Origin: Leptogorgia sarmentosa
Lineage: Eukaryota
Reading direction: 5' to 3'
NCBI GenBank assembly: GCA_964658305.1
Contig: OZ210885.1
Coordinates: 744,001 to 808,000 of the forward strand
Length of the DNA stretch: 64,000 nucleotides
Part shown: positions 40,201 to 64,000 of the stretch, in pieces
Position numbering within the stretch: position 1 is the stretch's first letter
Layout of the letters: every line of letters begins with the position of its first letter
Notes under the pieces: generated by a model
Databases searched by the model: none
Told to the model about the DNA's origin: nothing
The model's input: only the letters and a program-made list of their open reading frames with translations
Translations under genes and position numbers: made by a program

Positions 40201-43200
40201 AAAATTCTCTCCATCAGTTAAAGACGAAAATACTGTAGAGGATATGGCAGATCCTCCACCAAGTGCGACACAAGAACAGCAGGATAACTCTATTGAAATA
40301 ACTTTGAAGAATTTTCAAAGTGAAAGCGTGAGTTTTTGTCATGTTTCAGAATCTATAAAATTGTAGATACCTAATTTTCTTCGTTCGTCGTTTCCGAAAA
40401 AGACATTTCCTACCTCTATTGGAATTTGACAAAAATTCAAGTAAATACAAACTGACATTATAATACGACTTCATTTCAGCTCATTTACACTTTTTATCTT
40501 TTCAGATATAACCAGACCTTAATGCTTATCATATTTTTTTCATTGTAGTACACGGTGGATGCTGACATCAAGTTTAAAGATTCAGTAGTTGATATAATTA
40601 ACGCGTTTTGTAATGTAAACACATTGCGACCTCAAGATTGCGGCGTTTCCCAGTAAGTCAGAATAATCCCTGATGCTATCATGTTGCACCACAGAGAGCC
40701 CAAGCGTCGTGCTCATTCGTGTTGAATGTTTTTTCAGTTTATTTATAAAATCTTTTATAATTGTAATTCTTTTAATAATCCATTATATATTAGCTTTCAA
40801 GCACCACCCTTCAAACATGACAGTCTGTTGGCAGGTTAGTATCGTGGGAGACACGCGCGATGAAGCGGGACAATAATTTAAATACAGGGTAATTTGTGGG
40901 GCAATGCGTAACCAGCTCTTATTTCAAAAACAGAATAAATTATTGTCTCCTTTTTTTGGCTCCCGTCTCCCACGAAGTAACCTCCTAACAGGCCGTCACG
41001 TTTGAAAGCTGGTGCTCAGCAGCTACTTTATAACAGATTTTTAAAAGAATTACAACTATAATAGATTTTAAATGAATAAACTGAAAATCATTCAACACGA
41101 ATCAGCACGACGCTTGGGCCCCTGTGGGCGCGCGCACCAATCGACTTATTTCATATTATCTCTGATGTGACACGAATACTTTGTTAAGATAATTCATGTG
41201 AAATGATTGTAAATGCATTGGGGCGGGTTGTTTGTAGTCCGTTTAGCTTTAAACTGCGGATAACTGAAAATAATTTAAAATTACTCTCCAATACCTCTTG
41301 CGAATAACTAACTGAAGATAAATTTTACAATCTAAATATGCAGTTGTCTACATAACGGTGCTCTTATGAGAGTAAAAATTTTTTATTTTGATATTGTCCA
41401 ATGAATTTTTGGACTCGCCTAAAATTCTCGACTGGATACACTGTAGTAGCTAAAAAGACCACACGAACAACCGCCCGTTGCTACTTTTGATCGTGATGCG
41501 AAATAGTACATGATTGGAGGTAAAGAAAGTTTGAATGACATGGAAACAAACCGTCCATAAGGTTTTCGCTCTTATAAATCGATTGATGTGTTAGAAATGC
41601 AACATATCGGATATTGTTAAATGACGGGTCGAACGTATTACCAATATAATGTTCAGGTGAATCAGATGTTTTCTATTAAAATTATTGTATAAATTGTAGT
41701 TTGGTATAAATTATTCCTATCTAATTTCATACAAAAGTATAATTTGTGGCGTATTTCAAGAGTTGTTACAATTATTATCTCAACATATAGTTTTTACTCA
41801 TATTGTTTTTTATAGAAACAAAATCTCATTCAACCAATTGAACGTGAAACGCCTGCCAGGCTATCCACAAAACAGCGGCGCCAACACAACAATCAAGTTC
41901 TACGTTGATTATCCAGTAAGAACAGGATCACTTCCGAAAACAACACTGGCATCCATAGTGTTTGCAAAATTAGAGAGCTTTCAAAATGCCACTGGTTATT
42001 GTATTATTCTCAATACTCCTGTTACCCCAGACGCCCCGGCAGATCCAACTGATGATCAAAGAGATAACTCAGTCGTGTTACAAATAATTGGCTTCAGTAA
42101 AGCTCAGGTATTTCCTACAGCAAGAATTTCTAATAATATTGCACCTCACAATGACATCATCACATCAAAAGCTTAAATTTGTACCACGTGTCCATAATTA
42201 AGATTTTCTGGGGACCATCATGCCATAGAGACGTTCAATATAACCTTGAAAATATAAACGAAAATAGAATTCATTTTCCAGAGAAATAATCGTTAGGAAT
42301 AATGGGTCTAAAATAGGTCAACTGATTTAATTAGAGTATAATTTATCTTTTTTTTCCTTGCAGTGGACAATAAGTTATGACAGCATATTTCGCCGTTCAG
42401 TCGCTCTTAGTCTGACAAGATACTGCGACGTTATTGACAATGACGTGTACCCTCGTACCCAGGACTGTGAATTCTCAGGGTCAGTATGTTGATTTTTTTG
42501 TCTGGTTATGAAGATTTTGATGTTATCCCCGTCATCAAAATTTCAGTAGAGCTGAAAAATTATACCTGAACGTGTTTTGTTTTGCTATCTGATCGCCAAG
42601 GTTGCAAGATCACCTGAATAAATCCGCCAAAATTTTAACGATGCTCTTTGTTTTTCTTTTTATTTTGTTCTTTTGTTTTCATTGTCTCCTTGACGGTTTG
42701 AGTAATTTATTCCGGAATAATGGCAACCCTGTTGATCAATGTCAATAGACAATGAAGCAAAGCATTGAGGTATCAACAGGCTGATCTACTAAAGGGTGTA
42801 TCAGGGAAAAAGCTAGTCTTTGAAATTCAAATTAGCCGTGTTTAATTTAGTATAATATAATTCTGATCATGGCTTCACCAAAATGAAGTGTGTTGGTATT
42901 ATATCCAATATCAACTTAACATAAATTGTAGATGACTTGTGTCGTGACAGGAAAGGCTTCAGCTTCAAGAGCGACGTGATATTCCTTTTTGGATCGCATT
43001 CAACTTTGAGTTTCAATTCCGAATTCAGAAGTATCGCTATATTAGTAACCAAGCAATTAATGAAATAGCCCGCGGTTTAAATCGAAATAACATTTTTAAG
43101 CCAAGTTGAAGCTTTTTCATTTATTATAATAGCTCATATAAATATGTTATTGACTGAGTGTGAGGTCCGAACTGGAAGATACTGCACGGTCGAGTTCTTT

Positions 43201-46200
43201 TCTCCCTTGTATACGGACCCGAGCTGAAACTCAGTCAATAAGCTATTTATTATATGGCAAAAGATAAACAAAACTCGTTTACAACAATTCAACACTATGA
43301 ACAAAGCCGGTAAACGGCTAATTAACATAAGAACAGCTGTAAAATAAGTTCGCTAAAAATTGTTCTCTAAAATGTTATTGGTTACCAAAAAAAAAAGAAC
43401 AGAATGTTCAAAAATTTGTTAACTTATTTCGTCTTCGTTGTCGCTCGATTCAATAAAAAACCGACGTCGCTAAACCAGAGCGGTCGAACTTCAGGTTACC
43501 GACCGCTCAGGAACCAATCAGAATGCTGTATTTTAGGGCCGCTCAGAAACACTTCCCATATAATAAAAAAGCTTATACAAAACTTTTCAGGTCGGTGACA
43601 GGCTATAACCTCACTCATGTTGCACGACTTCCTGGATATCCCAAAGACGCTGCATCGAATATTGTTAACGTTTCGTTTTATGTCACAAACCCGAGTACAT
43701 CAACTCCAGTTCCACGAAAAGTACTTGCATCAATGTTGCTCATTCAGGAGTCAATTTTAGAGAACGCGCTTTCTCAGCAAGTAGTATTACAAACCTTTGC
43801 TGGACCAGATACTCCACCAGTAGCAAGCAGTGAGCAAATTAATAACAGTGTGGTAATTCGAATATCGTCATTTACACGAGAACAGGTATGTATGAATTGA
43901 AAAAATATATAATTTGTGCGCTTCAAATAATTATTATAGGCTCGTTTTATTAATATGTCTACAAAAATTCAACAGAACATATTAGACATATTAATTATAG
44001 TGGAAAATTGTGAGAAGGACGGAATGTTCTATTCAAAGTGAACAAAAGTCAATATTATGCCTAATTCCACGAAACTGCTGTCCTATCCAATCCCTGGTAG
44101 AGAAGAGTTAATATCATGTTACGCACAAAAATGTATTTTTCCGTATTCTTGATCCGTTCCCTATGTCCATCATGCAAGTCCCTGCTTGAATGCCTTTTTT
44201 TCGTTTTCGTTACAGTGGACATATCTGAATGATCGCCGTTTAAGAAGAGCAATATCAAATCGGATTACGAACTTCTGTAACCAAACTAGCCAACGTCGTC
44301 TCGATTGTCAAATCACAGGGTAAGTTTAATTTGTATTCCTAAATATGGCCAGTGCATGGCGTAAATCTTCAGCAATGCATCCCGGTTGAAGTGGTGTGGG
44401 GAGGGCCCCTTGATTATACCTCTTAGCTATAACTCTACAAAATATACGAAATACACATTTTTCGAGAACATACAGTAATATGATAGATTAGCTAGCTATT
44501 TAACATTTTATCCACTACGTCAATTATAGTAGTGGCATCTCCGTTTTTACATATTGCTTAAAAACGGGCAACCTCAATCGGCAACCAAATTGTTCCAGTT
44601 ACCGAATATTAATAATTTTGTCAACTCCGAGCTCAGGAATCAATCTCATTGTATCGTTTTGGTATAGACAGTAGAATTTTCGCTGCTTGTTGATATTGAA
44701 GCTGTATTAATTCTCAATGTTTTAATTCTCAATAATGAGTTATTCTCAATAAGTTTGCTAATTCTCCATAATTATAGTGACACCAGAAAAAGGGGGCACA
44801 ATTTTTTAGTAATAATTAAATTTTTACAACTTCTTCCGATTAACAATACGCTAAACCCATCACTAGGAAAATGGATTGATATGGTAGTCGCAGTCTAGCT
44901 TGAAATAAAATATCCGTTAATCAGGAAATCAATGTCTTTTTGCAGTGACGCTGTGTTGTTCACGGAAACTGACGTGCACCGAACATCATCAGCCACGCCT
45001 TCCAATGTCGCTGGTAACAGTATCGACTACAGTTTTTACGTCAACTATCCCATTCAAAATGTTCCAATTGTTGGCAATATATTAGCATCGATTGTGAAAT
45101 ATGAATTGTTAAGAATGCATTCGGAGTCTGCTCTTTTCTTCTCCCTGGAAACATCGTTCAGTCCTTATACACCCACGCCGCCAACATCAGCTCAGTCCAG
45201 CAATACTGTACAGATCAGGATTTTTAATCAATCGTCTACTGAGGTATATAATCTTTATAATGTTTGCCCTCGTTTAAACGTATACCATATTCTGTTGCAC
45301 ACGGGTATATTTTGTCCCATTTTTTTGCGAACATACTGTATAAACTCCGATAATGACAACTTCTGTTCAATTGACTTTTTCCAATTTCCTTGCAGTGGAC
45401 GGCTATTAAAGACAACAGATTCAGAAATTCAATAGCAAACCAAGTTGGTGCTTTTTGTTCAGATTATTCGGTCGCGTGCGTCCTTAACACAAGGAGGTAA
45501 AGTCGTACAAGATGACAGTTTTTACCAAACGACATTCCTATTTCTGATGCAATATTTCAAAAAATGTTATAACAACAATAGCACAATGCGTTTTAACTCC
45601 GAACGTGGCTACCATAAATTACCTTCTGGCGTACGGTTTTATGTACTTTCCAAACTTGAAAAATTGCATCGCGCTATAGTCATTCTAAAAAAGTTAGTAT
45701 AAAATTTATGGCGTCTAAAGTATCTCCTCCAATCTTATTGGTCGAGAAATTCCGACTTCCAGGCGATAGTCACAGGAAGTACAAATAATAACAACATTTT
45801 AGCCTAACGTTGACAGTGAATAACTTCCCTAATCCCAATAATATTATATTTTGCTAGGCAAGCTGTATAATTATGAAAACCTGGTCGAGCATAAGTGACA
45901 TGTTTATTAAATATTCTGTACTATTTTAGTGACCTGACATCGTTCTCACCATCAAATGTGATTCGGATTCGAAGTTCCCCTGTGCAAGATAGATATCATG
46001 TCATTTATACTTTGTTTGTGGTCTATCCATCTGACAGTGGACCAATTCAGCAAAATTTACTGGCAGCCATTTTAACTATTCGACTTGAAAATATTGAGAA
46101 CGAAAGCAACATGACACTTCAAATAATCACATCAAATCTGGCACCGTCTCCTCCTGATGCCGACTCAAGTAAAACTGACGAATCAGTAACCATGATAGCG

Positions 46201-49200
46201 CTTAATATTCAAGCCACGCAGGTAATTAACAAATATAACTTTGTTGAGGCAATGAGACTGAATTACTTTTATTTCACGAAATATCTTGGAATCAGAAGTA
46301 TAGCAACTGTATACTGATTGCGAATACACCTCGAGATAGTTCGTGGACGTTTCCACTGGTGATTTTATTCTGCATGCAATAAGTAGTATTCCCAACACCA
46401 ATATAAAGTCTTCAAGGCTTCGGCCAGATCAGCTAACACCTCATAGAAATCTGGAGTTCATAACCTAATTAAATTGTTTTTCTGTTTCAGTGGTCAGCCA
46501 TTCAAGATAACAAATTCCGTGGTTATGTTGCCCAGGCAATTGTCGAATATTGCACAGCAAATAATGCACAACGTGATGAATGTGACCTTCCCGCGTACGT
46601 TTTTGACTAATTTATCTCATTTTATGACTTCCTATACTATTAGTGAATCTTGGAAACTGCGAATTTATTTTAATTTATTCATTATAAAAAAATATTATAT
46701 CTTTAATATCTATAAAATTATTCTTTTCCTGGCCGTTTGTCGTTTGACGTTTGAACGTGTAGCTTAAACTCTCTAGTTATAATTCACATAGCGGAGACGT
46801 TTGAAAATTAGAATTTCTCGCCACAAAAGTATGTATGAATGTTTGCCGACCTCTTACTGCGTAAAAAAATGTCATTGAATCACTTGATGATTCTGTTTAT
46901 CACAATATTTCGTGTTGTTTTGAGCTAACTTTTGCGATAAGGTTCCATCCATCAGTTCACATTAGACAGTAATCTGAAACCTAAAATCTTTGTTTCAAAG
47001 ATCGTGATGCAACAATCGACGTCGTTTGATGCCCATCCATCAATTCATGTCGCTTGGGAAGCGATTTGAACACCCATTCTTTTAATAACGTTTTCAAATA
47101 CTCACGTTTTTCATCCTTCCACGTTACGCGACATTAGATGGCATCACTATTTTTGAAGCTGCTCAAAGATTAAAAGATTATTTATTCGGTTGCATGACAA
47201 ACAAGAAATTTCGGAAATATCACAATTTTTCAATTATCAGTTTGTGGTTTTCAAAAAACATATTCATTCCTCTCATTCGCACTAACAATCTCCCTCGCCA
47301 TATCTACCTTTACTCTGCATTCATATTTTATTCTCTTTAGAAATGACGCTACGTTTACACAAGATCACGTCCAACGTGTCCCAGGTTCACCCACAGAAAA
47401 TGGTGATGATTCTGAAATCGAATTTTATGTTAATTATCCTGGTGGTGGTACAATGTCTAAGGAAATTTTACTTTTGATCATGAATGAGAAAACCGACTCT
47501 ATTGCCAATAATACTGAAATGGCTCTTGTGTTGATAACTCCCGAATTTCCAACACCTCCTCCAGCAACACGCAGTCAAAATGAAAGCGCTGTCTCTGTTG
47601 TATTGAAGAATTTCCAAGTGGGCGAGGTTTGTTTGCCTGGGCCATTAATTTTACAATCGCAACTTTTGATGCAATTTAATTCTATTTAATTGTCCTTTTG
47701 ATGGAAGCAACCTCATGGCTAAGAACTCGATGTAACTTTTCGATGTTCCAGTTACGCGTTTTTACACGTTGCTACGTGTACGCATGTAAAATTCTAAACC
47801 CCTCATTAATAAAATATATTTAGAAACACATACTACATCATTTAAAGTATGAGATGCTTTACATTTAAATCAATTTCAAGTTTTTCGTGCATACACGTTA
47901 CACGTACGTAAAAAAACGCGTAATTGGAAAAGAGCCTTTAGGCTGAAAATTTCAAGTTCATTGATACAAAAACGTAAAATCATTGAATTACACGAGCAAA
48001 GGCTCCAAGGGCGAGCGAATGACTTAATAGTAATAATGTGAAAATGGTGAATAGAAACCATTAAACGGCAAAGTGAAATATTAAAATGTTTTTAAAAGAC
48101 TCGCGCGATATCTGCAGAGTGGCGTTAATTTATTCTAACATTGTACCTTTAGTGGCCTGCCAGAGATTTGCTGTTTCGACAAAATATGGCTAAAGAAATC
48201 CATGACTTTTGTAGCACTTCAGATTTCCATCGTACTCTTTGTAACATCACAAAGTGAGTATTTTGGATACGTCAGAAATACAACATTAGACATAGATCCT
48301 CAATTTCGAGCAATTGTAATGGTAAAAAATTATAAAAACTTTGTTATCGTTAATTTTGCTATCCTTTTGTCACTTCACCAATGGCATAATATTCCAGTGT
48401 TATTTGACTTCATTTCAATTCCGGTATTGCGTTCACCTGATTTGCATGCATTATAAAACTGTGTCCGCAAAATAGGCTATCTATTCAATGCTTGTACATT
48501 ATACTTTAACAGCAAATGTAAGACAAAGATGTTAAATTTAAAAATAATATGCAATTAATTACAAATCTTAGCAAACAAATTCTCGTGGGAGTTAACTTTC
48601 ATAACTTCCCTGAACATATCAATCAGTCCTTCCCTAATTTCTTGTTGGATCTGTATAATTGTCAGCGATATTCGTTTCTCTTTCAGTGACGACCTGAACA
48701 GCCTCACAAGTGCTGACATTCAAAGGCTGCCTGGTTCTCCATCACAAAATGGCACTAATTCAATCCTCAAATTTTACGCACAGTTGACAAGCGGTAGAAT
48801 TATTCCTAAAACCATCTTGGCCACCATCTTCGTAGAAAGACGGGAAAAAATATTTTCACTTGACAGCAGTCTGGAAGATTTCACAGAAAGTTTTACATCT
48901 GATGAAACAGTTCTTACTCCAGAACAACAACAAAATACAGTTCCTATTGCAATAATTAACTTTCTTCGTTCAAAGGTGAGGTAACAAGTCTGAGAGAAGT
49001 TACAATTATATTTGTCGGTCATAATTAAATTTGGCCGATGTTTAGCGAATGAATCTTGTTTTTCTACGTCGCGTATTTACGATGAACTCATGAAAGTGTT
49101 CACAAATCCTTTTGCATGGCGTACCTGCATAAGTTGTTTTCTTTATATCACTTCAAAATTTTAGTTTTAATGTTCATATCATGTGCTGCTATAACTATTT

Positions 49201-52200
49201 ATCGACAATACCAAAATTGTCAAAATTTTGTCAGTACCATATTAGGCTTGCAGCGGTTAGCTTTACGTTATTGTTGTCACAGCAAAAATGGACAACGTTT
49301 TGCAAATAATGATTGAGCAGGATTAAGCAATGTTTTGCTGCCTACAGTAATTGTTCACAGTTATTTTGTTATTGCCACGCCCGATTCAGTCCCAACAATA
49401 ATTTGTTGACAACCATGAGCAAAATGTGGGCAGTCAAACGCTGTTCAATCCTGTTTTACTGCAGACTGAAAATTTTGGTTTGTAGGATATATACATTAAA
49501 AATTGAAGGTATTTCCTCAATTACACTTACGTGAAGTATATTTTATTTAAATTATATGTTCCCTTGCTGTAGTTCACATCCTTGCGAAAGATGGATATCC
49601 AAGTGTCAGTTGCACGAAGAATGAATATCTTTTGTTTTACAACAGCTGCAGATACGTGCGGTATTACTAGGTAGGCATACAATCACTGTTCGTAGCCTAC
49701 TATTTTTAGAACATGAAATGCACAAAGCGAATAAGAGTTATGACCGTATGAAAATCTGATCATTGTTACGTATGTTTCCTTCTTGTTAATAATTCTCGAT
49801 ATCAGAATGAGTAAACTGCATTTGGCTAAGTTCTTCGTCCGGAATTTATGTGGTTGGTCTAGAGAACAAGTTAAAGTAACATGTGACAAAATTAAAAGTG
49901 GTTGAACCAACAATGTATTAAGGCATCATATTGGATTCCTTTTTATTTCCAGGCCAAGAAGAAGAAAACGGGCTGCGACGTAAGTTATTTCACTTCGTGA
50001 AACTAGTGGCCATCCCTGTTCTTTAATATGAAATAACTAATTATGCGGTGTTAAGACAAAAAAGATACATATCATTTTTCACTTGCAAAAACCACTAACT
50101 ACTCTAAGCGTCTACTTTGTTGAAAAAATAGAAACAAGGCAACAACGTAATGATAATTATACACTTTAACCCTCCCAATTACCTATTACGCATAAACCCC
50201 GCATATCAACATGAGCTATCATGCTTTAGAGAAAGGTCACGGTAGATAAATATCTGGAGAGCTGACAAAGGTTCCATCTGACCACATATGCAGTGACTGC
50301 AGTTACATAAGCTCTTCCCATTAAGAACTCTGTCTTACACTTTAAAATTACTATTACGCTCCGTCCATGCAATAAGTAGAATTAACAACTAAATGAACTA
50401 TCTCTCTAAATCCTCGTATATATTTTTGGCAGCGATCAATTCAGTGATAATGACGTCATAGTTACTGGCGTCATGGCAGCCGGAAATGATACAGTTATCA
50501 ATGTTGTTGTCAACGAACCAGGAGAGAATAACTCAGTTCCAGCTAATATTGTTGAAGAAGCAATGCGTGAATCCATTGAAACTGATAACACATCACTCAT
50601 TACTGGTTTACAACTTGCTCTTGTTAATACACCGGAAGTAATTACAACCAATCAACGTTCCAACGCAGTCAGTGTTCGCTTACCAAACACTCAGGCGAGT
50701 GAGGTGAGTTGACTCATTAATCATTCAACGAAACCTCTCAAACAGGAAATCGATTGGGAAAAAATCCCCAATGTGAAAGCGCGCAGCAATTTTTTCATGA
50801 AAATTGAACTTGTTATGGAATTAGTTTTAATTCTGTATTATTATTTGCATTGAAATTAAACCATGTTGTTCAAATGAATACATTTTAGTGGCAATTTGAG
50901 GATGAAATATCATTCAGAGAAAATATGTCGGAAGCCATTAAACAATTTTGTGGAATGAGTGCGTTACATCTGGATTTGTGTGGCCTTACTAGGTATGTAT
51001 CATTTAAGGAATGACAATGAGCTCTTCGGGCGAGTGTTTCCACACATTTATCATTTCCTCCCCAGCAAAGTAATTTTGGTTTCTTTTGCAACTATATCCT
51101 GCACGTATCGGAGTTTGTTGCTGCGGAAGGAAATGCAATCACACATGTTATTGTAAATCGTATCCGCGTCACTCCAACATTATGTTACAATGTTTTGTCC
51201 AGATCAAATGGAAATTTGTCAACAACAAACAAACTGGTGTCAAATTGAGGACTGATATTGTTCCTTAATTCTGATAGTGTTCGGTCCATCGCGTTTATGG
51301 TCAATTTGAGCTGTATGCATGTGGATCAACTGCTCTTGAGTTTCCCTTGCTTCTCGATATCAACCTGGAAAAATACGGCTTACAGCAATATCTCATTATT
51401 TCATTATAGTGCTCAAGTTAATGAAATCCAACCTTTGAATGTGAGGACATTGCCTGAATCTCCAAGTCAAAATGGAACAGACACCATACTGTCGTTCTTC
51501 GTGGATCTACCCAGTGGAACAACTATGCCTTTGGATCTTTTGACAACAATATTCATGTCATCACCAAACGTTCTTTCACAAGCAAACAGTGTTATTTCAG
51601 CAACAAGCGAAAACCCTGTGCTTACAGATGCTGAGACTAAAAACCTCGTTCCCTTGTCCATAATTATCCCAGCAAACAAGGTAAAATATCCCCAACAGTT
51701 TCTTCAATCAGTTTCTTTCAACTTTGAGATCAACATTGCGTGCTTTTAATGTAATTAACTTTAGTACATAGAATTCATAAGGAATCCTTCAAAAAATCTC
51801 AAACAGAAAAGGGTGAAAAGTTCAAACGCGTCTCATGTCGAAATGCGTTCAAATTCCACATGTCGAGGAAAAAATGACCTCATTTTCCTTGATTTCGGAG
51901 ATAACATTTCCCTATTTGTTCAAAGATTTGTTCCTTTTTTTTACATTCGAGCAAACATCCTACTCCTCCTCCACCTCCTCCTCCTTAGACCCGCTTTAAT
52001 GTAGTGCATGAATGACGAATCCATCAGGCTTTCTAAATGAGTGTTCATGCTGACTGAAAAAAACCTCAGAATTTAAAACTTATCAATTGGATGAACTTTA
52101 ATTTTATCGCCATATACACGTTTTGTTTTGGGTTTTTTCAGGATGTAAGACTGGATATCCAGGTTTCAATCGCCCACAGATTCAATGAACACTGTAAAAA

Positions 52201-55200
52201 CAATTTCAATGCCGAAATTTGTCCCAGCAACCGGTAAGTATTAGCAGGACATTTTAATACCAAAATGCATAGCGATGGGGAATGGATATTTAATTGAAAC
52301 GAGATGCAATCATCTTATCTGATGATGTTTTAAAAAACGACCATTTGCGGCTTGCCTTCACATTTTGCTTTTGTATTTTCTTAGTTTTTTATACTTGTTT
52401 ATTTTCTTTGATTTCAGGAACTTCACCAAAGATGATATTCGTGTTGTTATTCATCGTAACAATGGCTCTGTCAGTTTTGTGGTCACTGATCCTGATACTG
52501 GATCAACACTTCCCGTGAACCAAATACAAGAATCAATCAGTGGAAAGTTCAATTCCATAATTTACGGTCTACCTTATACACTGGAAGTTACAACCAATCA
52601 ACGTTCCAACGCAGTCAGTGTTCGCTTACCAAACACTCAGGCGAGTGAGGTGAGTTGATTCATTAATCATTCAACGAAACTTCTCAAACAGGAAATCCGA
52701 TTGGGAAAAAATCCCCAATCTGAAAGCGCGCAGAAATTTTTTTCCTGAAAAACGTAAAATCATTGAATTACACGAGCAAAGGCTCCTAGGGCGAGCGAAT
52801 GACGTAATAGTAATAATGAAAATGGTGAATACAAACAAAACGGGAAGGTGAAATATTAAAATGTTTTTAAAAGACTCGCGCGATGTCTGCAGAGTGGCGT
52901 TAATTTATTCTAACATTGTACCTTTAGTGGCCTGCCAGAGATTTGCTGTTTCGACAAAATATGGCCAAAGAAATCCAGGACTTTTGTAACACTTCAGATT
53001 TCCATCGTACTCTTTGTAACATCACAAAGTGAGTATTTTGGATACGTCAGAAATACAACATTAGACATTGTTCCTCAATTTCGAGCAATTGTAATGGTGA
53101 AAAATTATAAAAACTTTGTTATCGTTAATTTTGCTATCCTTTTGTCACTTCACCAATGGCATAATATTCCAGTGTTATTTGAGTTCATTTCAATTCCGGT
53201 ATTGCGTTTACCTGATTTGCATGCATTATAAAACTTTGTACCCAAAATAGGCTATCTATTCAATGCTTGTGCATTATACTTTAACAGCAAATGTAAGACA
53301 AAGATGTTAAATTTAACAATAATATGCAATTAATCACAAATCTTGGCAAACAAATTCTCGTGGGAGTTAACTTTCATAAGTTCCCTAATTTCTTGTTGGA
53401 TCTGTATAATTGTTAGCGATATTTGTTTCTCTTTCAGTGATGACCTGAACAGCCTCACAAGTGCTAACATTCAAAGACTGCCAGGTTCTCCATCACAAAA
53501 TGGCACCAATTCAATCCTCAAATTTTACGCACAGTTGACAAGCGGTAGAGTTATTCCTAAAACCATCTTGGCCACCATCTTCGTAGAAAGACGGGAAAAA
53601 ATATTGTCACTTGACAGCAGTCTGGAAGATTTCACAGAAAGTTTTACATCTGATGAAACAGTTCTTACTCCAGAACAACAAAATAATACAGTTCCTATTG
53701 CAATAATTAACTTTCTCCTTTCAAAGGTGAGTGTAACAAGTCTGAAATTAAATTTGTCCGACGTTTAGCGAATGAGTCTTTCATTCATGTTTTTCTATGT
53801 TGCGTATTTACGATAAAAGTGTTCACAAATCCTTTTGGCGTACCTGCATAACTTGTTTTCTTTATATCACTTCAAAATTTTAGTTTTAATGTTCCTATCA
53901 TGTGCTGCTATACTATTTATCGACAATACCAAAATTGTCAGAATATTGTCAGTACCAAATTAGGCTTGCAGCGGTTAGCTTTACGTTATTGTTGTCACAG
54001 CAAAAATGGACAACGTTTTGCAAATAATGATTGAGCAGGATTAAGCAATGTTTTGCTGCCTACAGTAATTGTTCACAGTTGTTTTGTTATTGCCACGCCC
54101 GATTCAGTCCCAACAATAATTTGTTGACAACCATGCATGAGCAAAATGTGGGCGGTTAAACGCTGTTCAATCCTGTTTTACTGCAGGCTGAAAATTTTGG
54201 TTTGTAGGATATATACATTACAAATTGAAGGTATTTCCTCAATTACACTTACGTGAAGTATATTTTATTTAAATTATATGTTCCCTTGCTATAGTTCACA
54301 TCCTTGCGAAAGATGGATATCAAAGTGTCAGTTGCACGAAGAATGAATATCTTTTGTTTTACAACAGCTGCAGACACGTGCGGTATTACTAGGTAGGCAT
54401 ACAATCACTGTTCGTACTATTTTTAAAACATGAAATGCACAAAGCGAATAAGAGTTATGGCAGTATTAAAATATATTTAAGTCTGATCATTGTTACTATG
54501 TTTTCTTCTTGTTAATAATTCTTGATATCAGAATGAGGAAACTGCATGTAGTCATTGACAAAATCAATGCTACGTTTTCTGGCTAGGTTCTTCGTCCGGA
54601 ATTTGTGTGGTTGGTCGAGAGAACTAATACAAATGCAATACACATGTTAAAGTAACATGTGACAAAATTGAAAGTGGTTGAACTAACAATGTACTAAGGC
54701 ATGATATTGGATTCTTTTTTATTTCCAGGCCAAGAAGAAGAAAACGAGCTGCGACGTAAGTTATTTCACTTCGTGAAACTAGTGGCCATCCCTGTTCTTT
54801 AATGTGAAATAACTAATTATGCGGTGTTAAGACAAAAAAGATACATATCATTTTTCACTTGCAAAAACCACTAACTACTCTAAGCGTCTACTTTGTTGAA
54901 AAAGTAGAAACAAGGCAACAACGTAATGATAATTATACACTTTAACCCTCCCAATTACCTATTACGCATAAACCCCGCATATCAACATGAGCTATCATGC
55001 TTTAGAGAAAGGTCACGGTAGATAAATATCTGGAGAGCTGACAAAGGTTCCATCTGACCACATATGCAGTGACTGCAGTTACATAAGCTCTTCCCATTAA
55101 GAACTCTGTCTTACACTTTAAAATTACTATTACGCACCGTCCATGCAATAAGTACAATTAACAACTAAATGAACTATCTCTCTAAATCCTCGTATATATT

Positions 55201-58200
55201 TTTGGCAGCGATCAATTCAGTGATAATGACGTCATAGTTACTGGCGTCATGGCAGCCGGAAATGATACCGTTATCAATGTTGTTGTCAACGAACCAGGAG
55301 AGAATAACCCAGTTCCAGCTAATATTGTTGAAGAAGCAATGCGTGAATCCATTGAAACTGATAACACATCACTCATTACTGGTTTACAACTGGCTCTTGG
55401 TAATACACCGGAAGTAATTACAATCAATCAACGTTCCAACGCAGTCAGTGTTCGCTTACCAAACACTCAGGCGAGTGAGGTGAGTTGACTCATTAATCAT
55501 TCAACGAAACCTCTCAAACAGGAAATCGATTGGGAAAAAATCCCCAATGTGAAAGCGCGCAGCAATTTTTTCATGAAAATTGAACTTGTTATGGAATTAG
55601 TTTTAATTCTGTATTATTATTTGCATTGAAATTAAACCATGTTGTTCAAATGAATACATTTTAGTGGCAATTTGAGGATGAAATATCATTCAGAGAAAAT
55701 ATGTCGGAAGCCATTAAACAATTTTGTGGAATGAGTGCGTTACATCTGGATTTGTGTGGCCTTACTAGGTATGTATCATTTAAGGAATGACAATGAGCTC
55801 TTCGGGCGAGTGTTTCCACACATTTATCATTTCCTCCCCAGCAAAGTAATTTTGGTTTCTTTTGCAACTATATCCTGCACGTATCGGAGTTTGTTGCTGC
55901 GGAAGGAAATGCAATCACACATGTTATTGTAAATCGTATCCGCGTCACTCCAACATTATGTTACAATGTTTTGTCCAGATCAAATGGAAATTTGTCAACA
56001 ACAAACAAACTGGTGTCAAATTGAGGACTGATATTGTTCCTTAATTCTAATAGTGTTCGGTCCATCGCGTTTATGGTCAATTTGAGCTGTATGCATGTGG
56101 ATCAACTGCTCTTGAGTTTCCCTTGCTTCTCGATATCAACCTGGAAAAATACGGCTTACAGCAATATCTCATTATTTCATTATAGTGCTCAAGTTAATGA
56201 AATCCAACCTTTGAATGTGAGGACATTGCCTGAATCTCCAAGTCAAAATGGAACAGACACCATACTGTCGTTCTTCGTGGATCTACCCAGTGGAACAACT
56301 ATGCCTTTGGATCTTTTGACAACAATATTCATGTCATCACCAAACGTTCTTTCACAAGCAAACAGTGTTATTTCAGCAACAAGCGAAAACCCTGTGCTTA
56401 CAGATGCTGAGACTAAAAACCTCGTTCCCTTGTCCATAATTATCCCAGCAAACAAGGTAAAATATCCCCAACAGTTTCTTCAATCAGTTTCTTTCAACTT
56501 TGAGATCAACATTGCGTGCTTTTAATGTAATTAACTTTAGTACATAGAATTCATAAGGAATCCTTCAAAAAATCTCAAACAGAAAAGGGTGAAAAGTTCA
56601 AACGCGTCTCATGTCGAAATGCGTTCAAATTCCACATGTCGAGGAAAAAATGACCTCATTTTCCTTGATTTCGGAGATAACATTTCCCTATTTGTTCAAA
56701 GATTTGTTCCTTTTTTTTACATTCGAGCAAACATCCTACTCCTCCTCCACCTCCTCCTCCTTAGACCCGCTTTAATGTAGTGCATGAATGACGAATCCAT
56801 CAGGCTTTCTAAATGAGTGTTCATGCTGACTGAAAAAAACCTCAGAATTTAAAACTTATCAATTGGATGAACTTTAATTTTATCGCCATATACACGTTTT
56901 GTTTTGGGTTTTTTCAGGATGTAAGACTGGATATCCAGGTTTCAATCGCCCACAGATTCAATGAACACTGTAAAAACAATTTCAATGCCGAAATTTGTCC
57001 CAGCAACCGGTAAGTATTAGCAGGACATTTTAATACCAAAATGCATAGCGATGGGGAATGGATATTTAATTGAAACGAGATGCAATCATCTTATCTGATG
57101 ATGTTTTAAAAAACGACCATTTGCGGCTTGCCTTCACATTTTGCTTTTGTATTTTCTTAGTTTTTTATACTTGTTTATTTTCTTTGATTTCAGGAACTTC
57201 ACCAAAGATGATATTCGTGTTGTTATTCATCGTAACAATGGCTCTGTCAGTTTTGTGGTCACTGATCCTGATACTGGATCAACACTTCCCGTGAACCAAA
57301 TACAAGAATCAATCAGTGGAAAGTTCAATTCCATAATTTACGGTCTACCTTATACACTGGAAGTTACAACCAATCAACGTTCCAACGCAGTCAGTGTTCG
57401 CTTACCAAACACTCAGGCGAGTGAGGTGAGTTGATTCATTAATCATTCAACGAAACTTCTCAAACAGGAAATCCGATTGGGAAAAAATCCCCAATCTGAA
57501 AGCGCGCAGAAATTTTTTTCCTGAAAAACGTAAAATCATTGAATTACACGAGCAAAGGCTCCTAGGGCGAGCGAATGACGTAATAGTAATAATGAAAATG
57601 GTGAATACAAACAAAACGGGAAGGTGAAATATTAAAATGTTTTTAAAAGACTCGCGCGATGTCTGCAGAGTGGCGTTAATTTATTCTAACATTGTACCTT
57701 TAGTGGCCTGCCAGAGATTTGCTGTTTCGACAAAATATGGCCAAAGAAATCCAGGACTTTTGTAACACTTCAGATTTCCATCGTACTCTTTGTAACATCA
57801 CAAAGTGAGTATTTTGGATACGTCAGAAATACAACATTAGACATTGTTCCTCAATTTCGAGCAATTGTAATGGTGAAAAATTATAAAAACTTTGTTATCG
57901 TTAATTTTGCTATCCTTTTGTCACTTCACCAATGGCATAATATTCCAGTGTTATTTGAGTTCATTTCAATTCCGGTATTGCGTTTACCTGATTTGCATGC
58001 ATTATAAAACTTTGTACCCAAAATAGGCTATCTATTCAATGCTTGTGCATTATACTTTAACAGCAAATGTAAGACAAAGATGTTAAATTTAACAATAATA
58101 TGCAATTAATCACAAATCTTGGCAAACAAATTCTCGTGGGAGTTAACTTTCATAAGTTCCCTAATTTCTTGTTGGATCTGTATAATTGTTAGCGATATTT

Positions 58201-61200
58201 GTTTCTCTTTCAGTGATGACCTGAACAGCCTCACAAGTGCTAACATTCAAAGACTGCCAGGTTCTCCATCACAAAATGGCACCAATTCAATCCTCAAATT
58301 TTACGCACAGTTGACAAGCGGTAGAGTTATTCCTAAAACCATCTTGGCCACCATCTTCGTAGAAAGACGGGAAAAAATATTGTCACTTGACAGCAGTCTG
58401 GAAGATTTCACAGAAAGTTTTACATCTGATGAAACAGTTCTTACTCCAGAACAACAAAATAATACAGTTCCTATTGCAATAATTAACTTTCTCCTTTCAA
58501 AGGTGAGTGTAACAAGTCTGAAATTAAATTTGTCCGACGTTTAGCGAATGAGTCTTTCATTCATGTTTTTCTATGTTGCGTATTTACGATAAAAGTGTTC
58601 ACAAATCCTTTTGGCGTACCTGCATAACTTGTTTTCTTTATATCACTTCAAAATTTTAGTTTTAATGTTCCTATCATGTGCTGCTATACTATTTATCGAC
58701 AATACCAAAATTGTCAGAATATTGTCAGTACCAAATTAGGCTTGCAGCGGTTAGCTTTACGTTATTGTTGTCACAGCAAAAATGGACAACGTTTTGCAAA
58801 TAATGATTGAGCAGGATTAAGCAATGTTTTGCTGCCTACAGTAATTGTTCACAGTTGTTTTGTTATTGCCACGCCCGATTCAGTCCCAACAATAATTTGT
58901 TGACAACCATGCATGAGCAAAATGTGGGCGGTTAAACGCTGTTCAATCCTGTTTTACTGCAGGCTGAAAATTTTGGTTTGTAGGATATATACATTACAAA
59001 TTGAAGGTATTTCCTCAATTACACTTACGTGAAGTATATTTTATTTAAATTATATGTTCCCTTGCTATAGTTCACATCCTTGCGAAAGATGGATATCAAA
59101 GTGTCAGTTGCACGAAGAATGAATATCTTTTGTTTTACAACAGCTGCAGACACGTGCGGTATTACTAGGTAGGCATACAATCACTGTTCGTACTATTTTT
59201 AAAACATGAAATGCACAAAGCGAATAAGAGTTATGGCAGTATTAAAATATATTTAAGTCTGATCATTGTTACTATGTTTTCTTCTTGTTAATAATTCTTG
59301 ATATCAGAATGAGGAAACTGCATGTAGTCATTGACAAAATCAATGCTACGTTTTCTGGCTAGGTTCTTCGTCCGGAATTTGTGTGGTTGGTCGAGAGAAC
59401 TAATACAAATGCAATACACATGTTAAAGTAACATGTGACAAAATTGAAAGTGGTTGAACTAACAATGTACTAAGGCATGATATTGGATTCTTTTTTATTT
59501 CCAGGCCAAGAAGAAGAAAACGAGCTGCGACGTAAGTTATTTCACTTCGTGAAACTAGTGGCCATCCCTGTTCTTTAATGTGAAATAACTAATTATGCGG
59601 TGTTAAGACAAAAAAGATACATATCATTTTTCACTTGCAAAAACCACTAACTACTCTAAGCGTCTACTTTGTTGAAAAAGTAGAAACAAGGCAACAACGT
59701 AATGATAATTATACACTTTAACCCTCCCAATTACCTATTACGCATAAACCCCGCATATCAACATGAGCTATCATGCTTTAGAGAAAGGTCACGGTAGATA
59801 AATATCTGGAGAGCTGACAAAGGTTCCATCTGACCACATATGCAGTGACTGCAGTTACATAAGCTCTTCCCATTAAGAACTCTGTCTTACACTTTAAAAT
59901 TACTATTACGCACCGTCCATGCAATAAGTACAATTAACAACTAAATGAACTATCTCTCTAAATCCTCGCATATATTTTTGGCAGCGATCAATTCAGTGAT
60001 AATGACGTCATAGTTACTGGCGTCATGGCAGCCGGAAATGATACCGTTATCAATGTTGTTGTCAACGAACCAGGAGAGAATAACCCAGTTCCAGCTAATA
60101 TTGTTGAAGAAGCAATGCGTGAATCCATTGAAACTGATAACACATCACTCATTACTGGTTTACAACTGGCTCTTGGTAATACACCGGAAGTAATTACAAT
60201 CAATCAACGTTCCAACGCAGTCAGTGTTCGCTTACCAAACACTCAGGCGAGTGAGGTGAGTTGACTCATTAATCATTCAACGAAACCTCTCAAACAGGAA
60301 ATCGATTGGGAAAAAATCCCCAATGTGAAAGCGCGCAGCAATTTTTTCATGAAAATTGAACTTGTTATGGAATTAGTTTTAATTCTGTATTATTATTTGC
60401 ATTGAAATTAAACCATGTTGTTCAAATGAATACATTTTAGTGGCAATTTGAGGATGAAATATCATTCAGAGAAAATATGTCGGAAGCCATTAAACAATTT
60501 TGTGGAATGAGTGCGTTACATCTGGATTTGTGTGGCCTTACTAGGTATGTATCATTTAAGGAATGACAATGAGCTCTTCGGGCGAGTGTTTCCACACATT
60601 TCGAATTCTCCCAAACTTACACGAGTGTTTACGTAACTCAATGTAAACATAGGAAAATGTTTTCCGTTGTTTTCATAAAATAACAAGATGACAAACGCGG
60701 AATAACGGAATAGCGAGAAGCAGCGGGAAATAGCTGTGTTTACATAATCTCACATCAACACGGCTGTTAGCCAATCACACGCGTGTTGTCTTTTTCACTT
60801 ACTTCCGGTTATTTTATAAAATATATTATAATTAAAGGCATGGTACGAATTTTTTTAAAATCCAAGATATGGCCATATATCTCTCCGTGAAATTTCAATA
60901 TGTCGCTAATATCAACAAGCAGCAAAAGTTCTACTCACTACACTAAACGATACCTTAAAGTTCGAAATTTTGAGCACCAATTCCCGACGAATGGTCTTGC
61001 CTCAAATCTTTGAATCTTATTGTGTGGCTTGGTTAACTTTTACTGTTTTTTGATGATTGTTCAAAAGTCGATCAGCTGTCTGGATCAATATGAATTTTAA
61101 TTTCTTCCTTGAGGTTTTGAAATAAAGAAACTAAAATAATTAAAATTAACTATTCAATATCACCTCAAAATCGCAGTTAGTTTTTAGAGCTATTTCACCT

Positions 61201-63948
61201 TTGAGCAACCTGCCTTTGCAAATGATCATTTAGCATCAGTTAGCATTGCCGACTCTGTATGGAATGCCAAGTAAAATTATCATTTCCTCCCCAGCAAAGT
61301 AATTTTGGTTTCTTTTGCAAGTATACCCTGTACGTATCGGAGTTTTTTGCTGCGGAAGGAAATGCAATCACACATGTTATTGAAAATCGTATCCGCGTCA
61401 CCCTAGCATTATAAGCACCAATGTTTTGTCCAGATCAAACGGAAATTTGTCAACAAACAAACTTGTGTCTAATTGAGAATATTGTTCCTTAATTCTGATA
61501 GTGTTCGGTCGATCACGTTTATCGTCAATTTGAGCTATATATGCATGGGATCAAGTGCTCTTGACTGTTTTCCTTGCTTAGGAAAAACGTGGAAAAACGG
61601 CTTACAGCAATATCTCATTATTTCATTATAGTTCTCAAGTCAATGAAATCCAATCCTTGAATGTGAAGACATTGCCTGAATCTCCAAGTCAAAATGGAAA
61701 TGACACCATACTGTCGTTCTACGTGGATCTGCCCAGTAATAAAACTATGCCTTTGGATCTTTTAACAACAATATTCATGTCATCACCAAACGTTCTTTCA
61801 CAACCAAACAGTGTTATTTCAGAAACAAGCGAAAACCCTGTGCTTACAGATGCTGAGACTAAAAACCTCGTTCCCTTGTCCATAAATGTCCTACCAAACC
61901 AGGTAAAATATCCCCAACAGTTTCTTCAATCAGTTTCTTTCAACTTTGAGATCAACATTGCGTGCTTTTAATGGAATTAACTTTAGTACATAGAATTCAT
62001 AAGGAATCCTTCAAAAAATCTCAAACAGAAAAGGGTGAAAAGTTCAAACGCGTCTCATGTCGAAATGCGTTCAAATTCCACATGTCGAGGAAAAAATGAC
62101 CTCATTTTCCTTGATTTCGGAGATAACATTTCCCTATTTGTTCAAAGATTTGTTCCTTTTTTTTACATTCGAGCAAACATCCTACTCCTCCTCCACCTCC
62201 TCCTCCTTAGACCCGCTTTAATGTAGTGCATGAATGACGAATCCATCAGGCTTTCTAAATGAGTGTTCATGCTGACTGAAAAAAACCTCAGAATTTAAAA
62301 CTTATCAATTGGATGAACTTTAATTTTATCGCCATATACACGTTTTGTTTTGGGTTTTTTCAGGATGTAAGACTGGATATCCAGGTTTCAATCGCCCACA
62401 GATTCAATGAACACTGTAAAAACAATTTCAATGCCGAAATTTGTCCCAGCAACCGGTAAGTATTAGCAGGACATTTTAATACCAAAATGCATAGCGATGG
62501 GGAATGGATATTTAATTGAAACGAGATGCAATCATCTTATCTGATGATGTTTTAAAAAACGACCATTTGCGGCTTGCCTTCACATTTTGCTTTTGTATTT
62601 TCTTAGTTTTTTATACTTGTTTATTTTCTTTGATTTCAGGAACTTCACCAAAGATGATATTCGTGTTGTTATTCATCGTAACAATGGCTCTGTCAGTTTT
62701 GTGGTCACTGATCCTGATACTGGATCAACACTTCCCGTGAACCAAATACAAGAATCAATCAGTGGAAAGTTCAATTCCATAATTTACGGTCTACCTTATA
62801 CACTGGAAGTTACAACCAATCAACGTTCCAACGCAGTCAGTGTTCGCTTACCAAACACTCAGGCGAGTGAGGTGAGTTGATTCATTAATCATTCAACGAA
62901 ACTTCTCAAACAGGAAATCCGATTGGGAAAAAATCCCCAATCTGAAAGCGCGCAGAAACTTTTTTCCTGAAAAACGTAAAATCATTGAATTACACGAGCA
63001 AAGGCTCCTAGGGCGAGCGAATGACGTAATAGTAATAATGAAAATGGTGAATACAAACAAAACGGGAAGGTGAAATATTAAAATGTTTTTAAAAGACTCG
63101 CGCGATGTCTGCAGAGTGGCGTTAATTTATTCTAACATTGTACCTTTAGTGGCCTGCCAGAGATTTGCTGTTTCGACAAAATATGGCCAAAGAAATCCAG
63201 GACTTTTGTAACACTTCAGATTTCCATCGTACTCTTTGTAACATCACAAAGTGAGTATTTTGGATACGTCAGAAATACAACATTAGACATTGTTCCTCAA
63301 TTTCGAGCAATTGTAATGGTGAAAAATTATAAAAACTTTGTTATCGTTAATTTTGCTATCCTTTTGTCACTTCACCAATGGCATAATATTCCAGTGTTAT
63401 TTGAGTTCATTTCAATTCCGGTATTGCGTTTACCTGATTTGCATGCATTATAAAACTTTGTACCCAAAATAGGCTATCTATTCAATGCTTGTGCATTATA
63501 CTTTAACAGCAAATGTAAGACAAAGATGTTAAATTTAACAATAATATGCAATTAATCACAAATCTTGGCAAACAAATTCTCGTGGGAGTTAACTTTCATA
63601 AGTTCCCTAATTTCTTGTTGGATCTGTATAATTGTTAGCGATATTTGTTTCTCTTTCAGTGATGACCTGAACAGCCTCACAAGTGCTAACATTCAAAGAC
63701 TGCCAGGTTCTCCATCACAAAATGGCACCAATTCAATCCTCAAATTTTACGCACAGTTGACAAGCGGTAGAGTTATTCCTAAAACCATCTTGGCCACCAT
63801 CTTCGTAGAAAGACGGGAAAAAATATTGTCACTTGACAGCAGTCTGGAAGATTTCACAGAAAGTTTTACATCTGATGAAACAGTTCTTACTCCAGAACAA
63901 CAAAATAATACAGTTCCTATTGCAATAATTAACTTTCTCCTTTCAAAG
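28247..63948 (+). CDS. Gene B (signal-peptide exon unresolved, 3'-partial): NIDO-AMOP-VWD-Ig-like-7xEGF plus >=18 SEA-like modules; tandem paralog of gene A
   Basis: Exons: 28247-28288, 28680-28804, 29136-29459, 29704-29801, 30492-30575, 30968-31485, 31788-31886, 32713-32844, 33339-33665, 33869-34123, 34699-34898, 35680-36010, 36619-36744, 37332-37454, 37665-37802, 38454-38576, 39314-39442, 40218-40327, 40549-40652, 41816-42107, 42364-42479, 43591-43885, 44216-44319, 44946-45243, 45396-45496, 45930-46221, 46491-46594, 47341-47626, then repeated 9-exon units from 48153; no stop codon seen in the spliced frame. Confidence 0.88.
28680..31050 (+). CDS. Gene B NIDO domain exons
   Basis: LWFNGINFRRLS|VCPNGLVRF...LLAPYWCNAD...YDPLWVGVVSW|KNCFDMLL...YRYVDITW|VIGFRIG|SGT...GRPGQ follows the NIDO motif order (NGxxsF, APyW, PxwxxxxtW, NtFqxxL, YxxIxW, GF, GxPG). 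Confidence 0.8.
31051..31485 (+). CDS. Gene B AMOP domain (3' part of exon 30968-31485)
   Basis: CNKWL...CPLPCP...CVFS...ECCYD...SCCLES...CELFYSLRPPC, the AMOP cysteine pattern. Confidence 0.82.
31788..33665 (+). CDS. Gene B VWD domain exons, with GDPH at 31799-31810
   Basis: ASGFGDPHYLTNDGKNYTFNGCGWY ... QVRT ... ATGFTALAV ... YENNSLGLTGNWNGNVDDDFTLPNG...IFYKFGEEW. Confidence 0.9.
32333..32582. repeat. Long inverted repeat with ~87-bp arms
   Basis: 32333-32420 vs 32495-32582 are reverse complements with few mismatches. Confidence 0.85.
34194..34412. mobile_element. hAT-like MITE with an 8-bp target-site duplication
   Basis: TIR cagtggcgtcgtgg/ccacgacgccactg; TSD cgcgtctg at 34186-34193 and 34413-34420; empty site cgcatctg in gene A near 1484. 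Confidence 0.9.
34699..39442 (+). CDS. Gene B cadherin/Ig-like domain and seven EGF domains
   Basis: Exon-for-exon paralogs of 2105-9235 with identical lengths and phases. Confidence 0.9.
35281..35555. mobile_element. MITE with ~49-bp imperfect TIRs
   Basis: tttacagcagtttcgagtgatgcgcgaccatctaacgcgaaatgtttga / tcaaacatttcgtgttaggtggtcgcgaatcactcgaaacttctgtaaa; the gene A intron here is only 91 bp. Confidence 0.8.
37814..37963. mobile_element. Short foldback MITE
   Basis: aggcagctttggcaaaca...aaaatggcgtga / tcacgccatttt...tgtttgctgaagctgcct. Confidence 0.7.
38995..39206. mobile_element. Degenerate MITE
   Basis: cgtcttccattgcagtcgctttgc..gagcgaac / gttcgctc..gcaaagcggctgtaatggaaaacg. Confidence 0.6.
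40690..41126. mobile_element. Long-TIR foldback element with CACAG...CTGTG termini
   Basis: Inverted similarity runs ~170 bp in from each end (gcccaagcgtcgtgct.attcgtgttgaatg / cattcaacacgaatcagcacgacgcttgggc); empty site in gene A near 10755. Confidence 0.8.
41221..41477. mobile_element. Degenerate copy of the ggggccggtt MITE family
   Basis: gggcgggttgtttgtagtccgtttagctttaaactgcggataa ... cgaacaaccgccc; absent in gene A. Confidence 0.6.
43131..43567 (+). mobile_element. Dispersed non-autonomous element inserted at an ataataaa site just upstream of a splice acceptor
   Basis: Gene A has the empty site ttcatttattataataaaatcttatataaaacttttcag (12609-12647); internal hairpin ttattgactgag/ctcagtcaataa. 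Confidence 0.7.
47746..47929. mobile_element. MITE immediately upstream of the tandem-array start
   Basis: ttccagttacgcgttttttac / gtaaaaaaacgcgtaattggaa inverted repeats. Confidence 0.7.
49953..49979 (+). CDS. 27-nt furin-site microexon (R)PRRRKRAA(T), unit copy 1
   Basis: tttccAG|gccaagaagaagaaaacgggctgcgac|GTaagt. Confidence 0.82.
52418..52649 (+). CDS. Chimeric exon: 5' part of the TM exon fused to the 3' end of the module-7 long exon (also 57194-57425 and 62640-62871)
   Basis: NFTKDDIR...IIYGLP matches 21568-21724; EVTTNQRSNAVSVRLPNTQASE and the following intron start match 18965-19075 and 50635-50800. Confidence 0.9.
52748..57523 (+). repeat. Intragenic tandem unit copy 2 (4776 bp; 1485 coding nt = 495 aa)
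   Basis: Exons 52928-53028, 53438-53726, 54295-54392, 54729-54755, 55209-55479, 55665-55768, 56186-56456, 56918-57009, 57194-57425; ORF-track hits recur at a +4776 offset. Confidence 0.93.
54729..54755 (+). CDS. 27-nt furin-site microexon (R)PRRRKRAA(T), unit copy 2
   Basis: tttccAG|gccaagaagaagaaaacgagctgcgac|GTaagt; differs from copy 1 by a synonymous CGG/CGA change. Confidence 0.82.
57524..62969 (+). repeat. Intragenic tandem unit copy 3 (5446 bp; ~670 bp of extra intron)
   Basis: Exons 57704-57804, 58214-58502, 59071-59168, 59505-59531, 59985-60255, 60441-60544, 61632-61902, 62364-62455, 62640-62871. Confidence 0.93.
59505..59531 (+). CDS. 27-nt furin-site microexon (R)PRRRKRAA(T), unit copy 3
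   Basis: Identical to 54729-54755. Confidence 0.82.
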
Positions 63949-64000
63949 GTGAGTGTAACAAGTCTGAAATTAAATTTGTCCGACGTTTAGCGAATGAGTC
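62970..64000 (+). repeat. Intragenic tandem unit copy 4 (truncated by the window end)
   Basis: Matches 57524-58554; exons 63150-63250 and 63660-63948. Confidence 0.92.

Follow-up and report, generated by a model that had tools for sequence, protein, structure and literature searches.

The locus described here raises the question of how an exon that ends in a membrane anchor in one gene came, in a paralog of that gene, to lead into another round of a repeat. The window, the whole stretch of 64,000 nucleotides that was analysed, has a GC content of 36% and carries two paralogous intron-rich genes, A and B, on its + strand. Gene A begins before the first exons of the window and finishes with a tail exon whose last base is 22286; the start of gene B lies at about 29070 or upstream of it, and the gene continues past the end of the window. 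Nine related modules of approximately 130 residues each lie downstream of the EGF repeats, and each of them is laid out as a short exon (phase 0 to 2) followed by a long exon (phase 2 to 0). Assembled contigs from four of 16 sequencing runs (X1, X2, X7, and X8) were compared with the window. Run X7 bears a second organism label, and run X8 is called spliced from its GT-AG joints alone, with no run being recorded as RNA.

29070–47626, + strand: upstream exons of gene B, encoding NIDO-like, VWD-region, and C8 segments, EGF repeats, and modules 1–5 (Pfam, and tblastn with homolog P0004).
21568–21840, + strand: gene A exon encoding module 9 and the transmembrane segment, spliced to the tail exon in run X8.
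22103–22286, + strand: gene A cytoplasmic-tail exon, ending at the stop codon.

The domains upstream of the modules indicate what kind of protein is encoded. A MUC4-type C8 domain (PF23263) is matched above the cut-off by the exon 33868–34140, with an E-value of 2.5e-14 in the Pfam scan, and the VWD family is precomputed on homologs P0004–P0006, which align to 31787–33664. The NIDO match (PF06119, E-value 1.4e-4) is limited to one exon and its 22.4 bits are below the cut-off of 25; the family is precomputed on homolog P0005 only. The cysteine-rich exon 30966–31571 sits between NIDO and VWD, a place fitting AMOP; that domain was found neither on this exon by Pfam nor among the precomputed families of the homologs. 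Neither the PTS tandem-repeat mucin domain of MUC4 nor the Sushi domain of SUSD2 is present among the homologs' families or the annotated exons, which leave out the 5′ and 3′ ends of gene B. PF26284 is precomputed on four homologs, and a Pfam scan of P0001 returned no family. As judged from the sequence, the product is likely a large mucin-like NIDO-VWD-C8-EGF surface protein with nine predicted SEA-like modules; it resembles MUC4 and SUSD2 in its working without being classed as either.

The exon in question is built from three segments. The original prediction described an exon that follows the gene A anchor exon and then continues with the terminal part of the module-7 long exon, with two breakpoints, and the alignments confirm this three-part structure.

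52418–52649, + strand: chimeric exon of unit 1 (module-9 body and module-7 long-exon end), 232 nucleotides, phase 2 to phase 0.
52418–52573, + strand: part common to the gene A anchor exon (predicted strands 2–4 and helix 2 of module 9).
52574–52751, + strand: graft, consisting of 76 nucleotides of exon, the GT donor, and 102 nucleotides of module-7 intron, the last four bases (AAAA) overlapping the next segment.
52748–52927, + strand: remainder of the chimeric intron, copied from the intron that precedes module 6 (47968–48152).
50433–50803, + strand: module-7 long exon (50433–50703) and the start of its intron; the donor of the graft is at approximately 50627–50803.

In the window alignment, 52418–52573 differs from gene A 21568–21723 at two of 156 bases. 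The graft is 178 bp long in all, and its positions 52576–52751 are 93.9% identical to 50627–50803 over 179 columns. The piece of module-7 intron, anticipated at about 95 bp, is present and measures 102 bp, or 98 bp without the AAAA overlap. From 52748 onward the sequence matches the intron upstream of module 6 from 47968, which is where the join had been placed. The three segments tile 52418–52927 without a gap, the exceptions being two substitutions and a 3-base deletion by junction 1. The graft also provides the donor phase, as proposed: the 232-nucleotide exon is entered in phase 2 and left in phase 0, and the gene A anchor exon ends in phase 2.

The two junctions have different characters. 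Junction 2 (52748–52751) has a 4-base microhomology, AAAA, and junction 1 has no clean microhomology. A homeology-guided junction 1 (nine of 11 bases matching) was rejected as not significant, because its frequency of 25 in 5000 for one chosen word rises to 179 in 2000 shuffles when any nearby word is allowed. A longer microhomology, TGAAAA at about 47944, was also discarded: the C of the graft at that place occurs in intron 7 of run X7 as well, so that plain AAAA is enough. At approximately 47718–47936 there are inverted repeats resembling those of a small non-autonomous DNA transposon, which end about 30 bp upstream of the landing point of junction 2.

The chimeric exon has the same structure in all three complete units of a tandem array in gene B.

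47968–52747, + strand: repeat unit 1 (modules 6–9, nine exons, 495 codons).
52748–57523, + strand: repeat unit 2.
57524–62969, + strand: repeat unit 3, carrying a 677-bp insertion near 60601 and a module-8 long exon that has diverged.
62970–64000, + strand: repeat unit 4, incomplete because the window stops after module 6.
57194–57425, + strand: chimeric exon of unit 2.
62640–62871, + strand: chimeric exon of unit 3.

From module 5 to the end of the window, all 30 annotated exons have AG and GT ends and, when spliced, form one open frame with a period of 495 residues; each unit contains 10 glycosylation sequons and eight cysteines. Identity between the units is a mosaic. Units 1 and 2 differ in modules 6 and 7 (11 of 289 bases in the module-6 long exon) and at a single base beyond 50650. 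Unit 3 is the same as unit 2 apart from the region of the module-8 long exon (21 of 271 bases differ), and units 2–4 are nearly identical across kilobases. Such a pattern would fit unequal crossing-over together with conversion. The insertion in unit 3 (60601–61277) is followed by a diverged intron and the module-8 long exon 61632–61902, which has 14 non-synonymous and three synonymous codon differences from that of unit 2. A reading of this divergence as the mark of an initial duplication of modules 8 and 9 was set aside: the module-8 type of unit 3 is the common type in runs X7 and X8, and it has no dating value.

The module fold accounts for why the place of the graft matters. In an AF2 model of modules 6–9 of the Dendronephthya homolog P0005, calculated from a three-row alignment (mean pLDDT 73, pTM 0.47) and not including the hybrid module, the chain forms repeated β-α-β-β-α-β units in which the first strand consists of residues ending the previous long exon. 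Each module is therefore predicted to be a SEA-like, ferredoxin-like domain of this topology. Classical SEA (PF01390) was matched by none of the 10 module exons scanned with Pfam, nor by P0001. The top hit of the structural search, with a Z-score of 9.3, is a nuclear-pore chain, which we take to be Nup54; it is followed by PCDH15 EC11-EL (MAD12; Z 9.1, rmsd 2.3, 92 aligned residues), CELSR1 (Z 8.9), and CDH23 (MAD28; Z 8.3), in a search in which best Z-scores of 7–8 are commonly reached by chance arrangement. IA-2, MUC16 (MUC16-like SEA, Z 5.5), the dystroglycan complex, and GPR126 score 5–6. Foldseek gave no match at an E-value of 0.001 or lower; its best rows are ACE2 (6e-3), in line with a weak Pfam match of Collectrin to module 9 (E-value 0.05). 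The structure atlas offers SEA/KIAA1549 at 0.79–0.80 as a lead only.

Junction 1 is located at the end of predicted strand 4, and a break just after this strand would leave module 9 whole. The grafted end is identical to that of module 7 in 16 of 16 residues and to that of module 5, the natural partner of module 6, in eight of 16; the six other long-exon ends of gene A score 2–6. Among the eight long-exon ends of gene A, that of module 7 is thus the closest to the natural one of module 6, module 5's own aside. As whole modules, 6 and 8 are the joint closest pair within gene A (38% identical). The proposal that the graft supplies the first strand of the next module agrees with the homolog model, in which the matching residues form that strand. 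The graft is predicted to give module 6 a substitute first strand, with which the hybrid would fold.

The divergence of the copied segments bears on how the graft originated. The graft differs from module 7 of unit 1 by seven substitutions and three indels in 178 bases, and the copy of the upstream intron differs from its source by seven substitutions and two indels in approximately 185. The copied flanks are thus about equally diverged from their sources, as expected if they are of one age. At two intron sites the graft has the base of gene A where all three gene B module-7 introns differ, and beyond about +45 its intron is that of gene B, which indicates copying from an early gene B. Intron 7 in run X7 carries two further graft-type states (50797 C and one extra T). 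The module-6 copies of gene B are 89–95% identical to that of gene A and at most 65% identical to that of any homolog; the module-9 body of gene B is 93% identical to its gene A counterpart.

The graft most plausibly marks the junction at which the four-module block itself was first duplicated, and not, as originally proposed, a prior step that made the block amplifiable. A 178-bp local template lies between two junctions, the second with AAAA, as in a tandem duplication with templated insertion. It is an even call that one template-switching tandem duplication made the chimeric exon, a route that is inseparable from two successive duplications, with no intermediate or array end in view. Copying would have left its template at the end of module 9, resumed within module 7, and then moved upstream once more to the intron before module 6, completing the tandem duplication; once two units existed, unequal crossing-over and conversion would have enlarged and homogenised the array. 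Template switching of this type is known as FoSTeS or MMBIR.

Two ordinary steps are a possible, though clearly less probable, origin. A single crossover within the exon would have fused the body of module 9 with the end of module 7, so that modules 8 and 9 were duplicated and module 8 received a native first strand, and a later break in the short intron would have joined it to the intron before module 6 in a second duplication. Frame and fold would survive each step. Single in-exon chimeras also look common: in an automatic sort of 111 matches, module-5-type ends stand behind three of 11 module-9, four of 20 module-8, and one of 35 module-7 bodies, one of the module-8 assignments being marginal and eight bodies and many ends not being placed. 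The second break would necessarily lie near the first, as intron 7 is only 185 bp long, and the closeness of the junctions is therefore forced under the one-event and two-event routes alike. The intermediate, however, is absent among the contigs listed, all three chimeric exons in the window run on into the module-6 intron, and the equal divergence of the flanks also speaks for a single event.

Comparison with homologs introduces a third possibility. All named homologs with these modules are octocorals (Dendronephthya, Xenia, and Paramuricea), which makes an octocoral the likely source of the window. Module 9 reads on into a second module 6 in P0002 and P0006, P0001 ends right after a module-6-type first strand, and a single block followed by an anchor is found in P0005 and in P0004, which is the nearest full homolog. 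Thirteen of the 111 library matches carry module 9: it is directly followed by a transmembrane segment in eight, by a module-5-type end in four (two of which continue into module 6), and by neither in one; a module-7 end follows it in none of the 13. The reading of module 9 into module 6, attributed by the original prediction to the graft, is therefore seen but is not special to gene B, because the other three genera loop with a module-5-type end. Xenia P0007 (XP_046852406.1) has modules 9, 6, and 7, a Thr-rich linker, and a transmembrane segment, as in a looped gene ending after module 7, and it may be a gene-model join. Single-exon matches P0038, P0051, P0052, P0091, and P0068 have module-8 or module-7 bodies with module-5-type ends and are further chimeric exons in relatives. 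The distant P0105 combines EGF repeats with one such module, in which a basic site follows the Cys loop, and with a Thr-rich linker and transmembrane segment; it is a possible single-module relative.

It is improbable that gene B inherited an old 9-to-6 loop, which was homogenised with gene A and in which a module-7 patch later overwrote the module-5-type end. The loop is indeed present in Dendronephthya (P0001, P0002), Xenia (P0006, P0007), and Paramuricea (P0019), and homogenisation, evident within the array, is able to erase old history. By contrast, neither a module-5-type end nor a separate old intron has left a trace in 52418–52927, the entire unit is gene-A-like, and the single block of P0004 ends in an anchor. 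In a tree of 20 module-9 bodies (56 columns), the loop label needs at least three changes on well-supported branches, gene B groups with gene A, and P0083 groups with the anchored P0005. One clade of looped module-9 bodies is rejected (p-AU 2.4e-4 with gene B and 1.9e-5 without it), a rejection that conversion could also cause. Most likely, gene B re-created the 9-to-6 loop by another route, repeated origin being likely for this gene because its graft differs. In-gene conversion could yield the same tree pattern, and the case for repeated origin outside gene B is weaker.

An assembly artefact from collapsed or mis-joined repeats has a negligible chance of being the explanation and is largely refuted already for the junction: near-identical units 2–4 could make the copy number wrong, but junction 1 is found in contigs of three runs, one of them spliced and one with the second organism label, which come from two studies, and the graft has substitutions of its own. 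The original prediction had been staked on support for the junction by raw reads; assembled contigs, rather than raw reads, support junction 1. In run X8, a 116-base contig bridges it with 72 and 44 bases and zero differences, and the junction is also present in two DNA runs, one of which bears the second label. At 21723, three of the four runs (X1, X7, and X8; X2 is not listed) show a loose end that continues as the chimeric exon does. Junction 2 is covered in three DNA-like runs, with neither a loose end nor a bridging contig among those listed. In another contig of run X8, the module-6 short exon follows directly on a module-7-type end, with only 24 bases on the short side, and the letters of this contig fit 50703 or 52649 equally. 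The chimeric exon is a real, spliced, and expressed hybrid, with one contig carrying the splice to module 6.

Whether the product of gene B is anchored is a question separate from the route of origin. A second type of anchor exon, differing from that of gene A at 21795, 21818, and 21826 and joined to a diverged tail, occurs in runs X2, X7, and X8; its intron is shorter in X2 and X7, and it is spliced in X8. Run X7 has three versions of the 3′ part of the anchor exon, and X1 has the second tail only, without its exon. The last unit of gene B is the simplest owner of this exon, which is unphased to gene B and could belong to a third paralog or an allele of gene A. Gene B is probably anchored. 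It had been suggested that gene B would be secreted should no transmembrane exon lie downstream, and no anchor exon follows the array within the window; a transmembrane segment is missing from the ends of the looped models P0001, P0002, and P0006, which look truncated, and the anchor exon of P0034, which is of the second type, is preceded by an A-like intron. Secretion is nevertheless unlikely, considering the second anchor exon and tail in DNA contigs, their splicing in X8, and the transmembrane segment with which P0007, the looped Xenia model, terminates. An anchor exon likely still closes the last unit of the array, and the product would be a longer membrane-tethered, glycosylated stalk with one furin-type site per 495 residues. 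A homolog search with the anchor exon alone as the query gave no match among 253 candidates. All four runs also have loose ends at 22185 and 22229, which mark a more distant tail exon belonging to another family paralog in these organisms.

The furin-type site is encoded by an exon of its own.

49953–49979, + strand: 27-nucleotide micro-exon of module 7 with a basic R-x-K-R (furin-type) site, putatively cleaved.
54729–54755 and 59505–59531, and 18160–18186 in gene A, + strand: copies of the micro-exon.
15818–15844, + strand: second copy in gene A, in the module-5 intron, AG and GT intact and in frame (putative exon).

In the AF2 homolog model, the basic site lies in a low-confidence loop between helix 1 and strand 2 of module 7. 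The chain would be cut inside this module, and its two halves would be held together afterwards, like those of other cleaved SEA domains; in GPR126, MUC1, and Notch they remain together until pulled apart (PMC6954182, excerpt), and KIAA1549 has three SEA-like domains and a furin site (PMC13570299, excerpt). The gene A segment 15449–16002 resembles the module-7 intron of gene B (73–84% over up to 360 bp) and is absent from gene B intron 5; its extra micro-exon would be spliced into module 5 in frame, at the corresponding position. This piece is a putative second templated graft. Module 9 of both genes has G-S-V at the predicted strand 2–3 turn (52461–52480 in gene B), like the SEA self-cleavage motif in the excerpted account of PMC6954182; it is also a glycosylation sequon and is not conserved in most homologs. 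It is conceivable, but tentative, that octocoral genes looped modules 6–9, the block with the furin site, several times independently, gene B differently from the others, under selection favouring stalks of cleavable SEA-like 'fuses' or shed 495-residue units, and that the cleavage site itself is a movable 27-nucleotide exon that gene A copied into module 5.

Mucin-like proteins of this type have been reported in skeleton proteomes of octocorals and stony corals (PMC7533068, PMC7853314, excerpts). Acropora B3EWY9 and Corallium CR_2, which are mucin-like or SUSD2-like skeletal matrix proteins, and MUC4-type NIDO-AMOP-VWD-EGF proteins share with the genes described here the NIDO-like, VWD, MUC4-type C8, and EGF parts and, in gene A, the single anchor. 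The coral skeletal proteins are described with a Sushi domain (PMC7533068, excerpt), whereas these genes, known from sequence and not from skeleton, have nine SEA-like modules after the EGF repeats.

The modules have a predicted ferredoxin-like fold in common with PCDH15 MAD12, CELSR1, CDH23, KIAA1549, GPR126, the Notch HD, the MUC16 SEA array, and the ACE2/collectrin neck. GPR126, Notch-2, and KIAA1549 also have a furin-type site inside the domain (PMC6954182, PMC13570299, excerpts). Unlike divergent SEA domains, the modules have no Pfam SEA match and carry a conserved Cys pair after helix 1, and the basic site is between helix 1 and strand 2, in its own 27-nucleotide exon, and not in the strand 2–3 loop. 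Because the site lies in another loop, the parallel with cleaved SEA domains may serve only as a lead.

The closest known counterparts of the looped gene B are XP_028408025.1 and XP_028408014.1 of Dendronephthya gigantea, LOC124445696 and XP_046852406.1 of Xenia sp., and CAB4038878.1 of Paramuricea clavata, which have the same nine modules, 40–55% identical to those of gene A, and the basic site in module 7. In all five, module 9 leads into a module-6-type first strand, and in four of them into module 6. Their loop uses a module-5-type end and one crossover; in gene B, by contrast, it is closed by a module-7 end through two junctions. Titles and abstract openings searched by the homolog accessions, PF26284, octocoral NIDO-AMOP-SEA, and octocoral mucin SEA tandem describe neither the family nor the loop, most subscription journals being outside this scope. 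An octocoral surface-protein family with SEA-like arrays and a furin-type micro-exon is apparently undescribed.

As a rearrangement, the event resembles tandem duplications with templated insertion (PMC7025897, excerpt) in its two junctions, short local template, microhomology, and re-replicated host segment. It differs from known templated insertions in being germline, in frame, expressed, common to two organism labels, and later amplified. The birth junctions of multi-domain super-repeats are usually erased; here the junction can be read per base, together with the donor, a pre-duplication paralog, and outgroups. The exon grid is offset from the domain grid, with the first strand encoded on the previous exon, which limits the duplications that survive. 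Since the 9-to-6 join was made through a different graft in three named genera, the repeatability of repeat boundaries is testable. What places this case above the ordinary, in a process already known in kind, is a birth junction that can be read, a loop that related genera close in a different way, and a furin-type micro-exon that is apparently movable.
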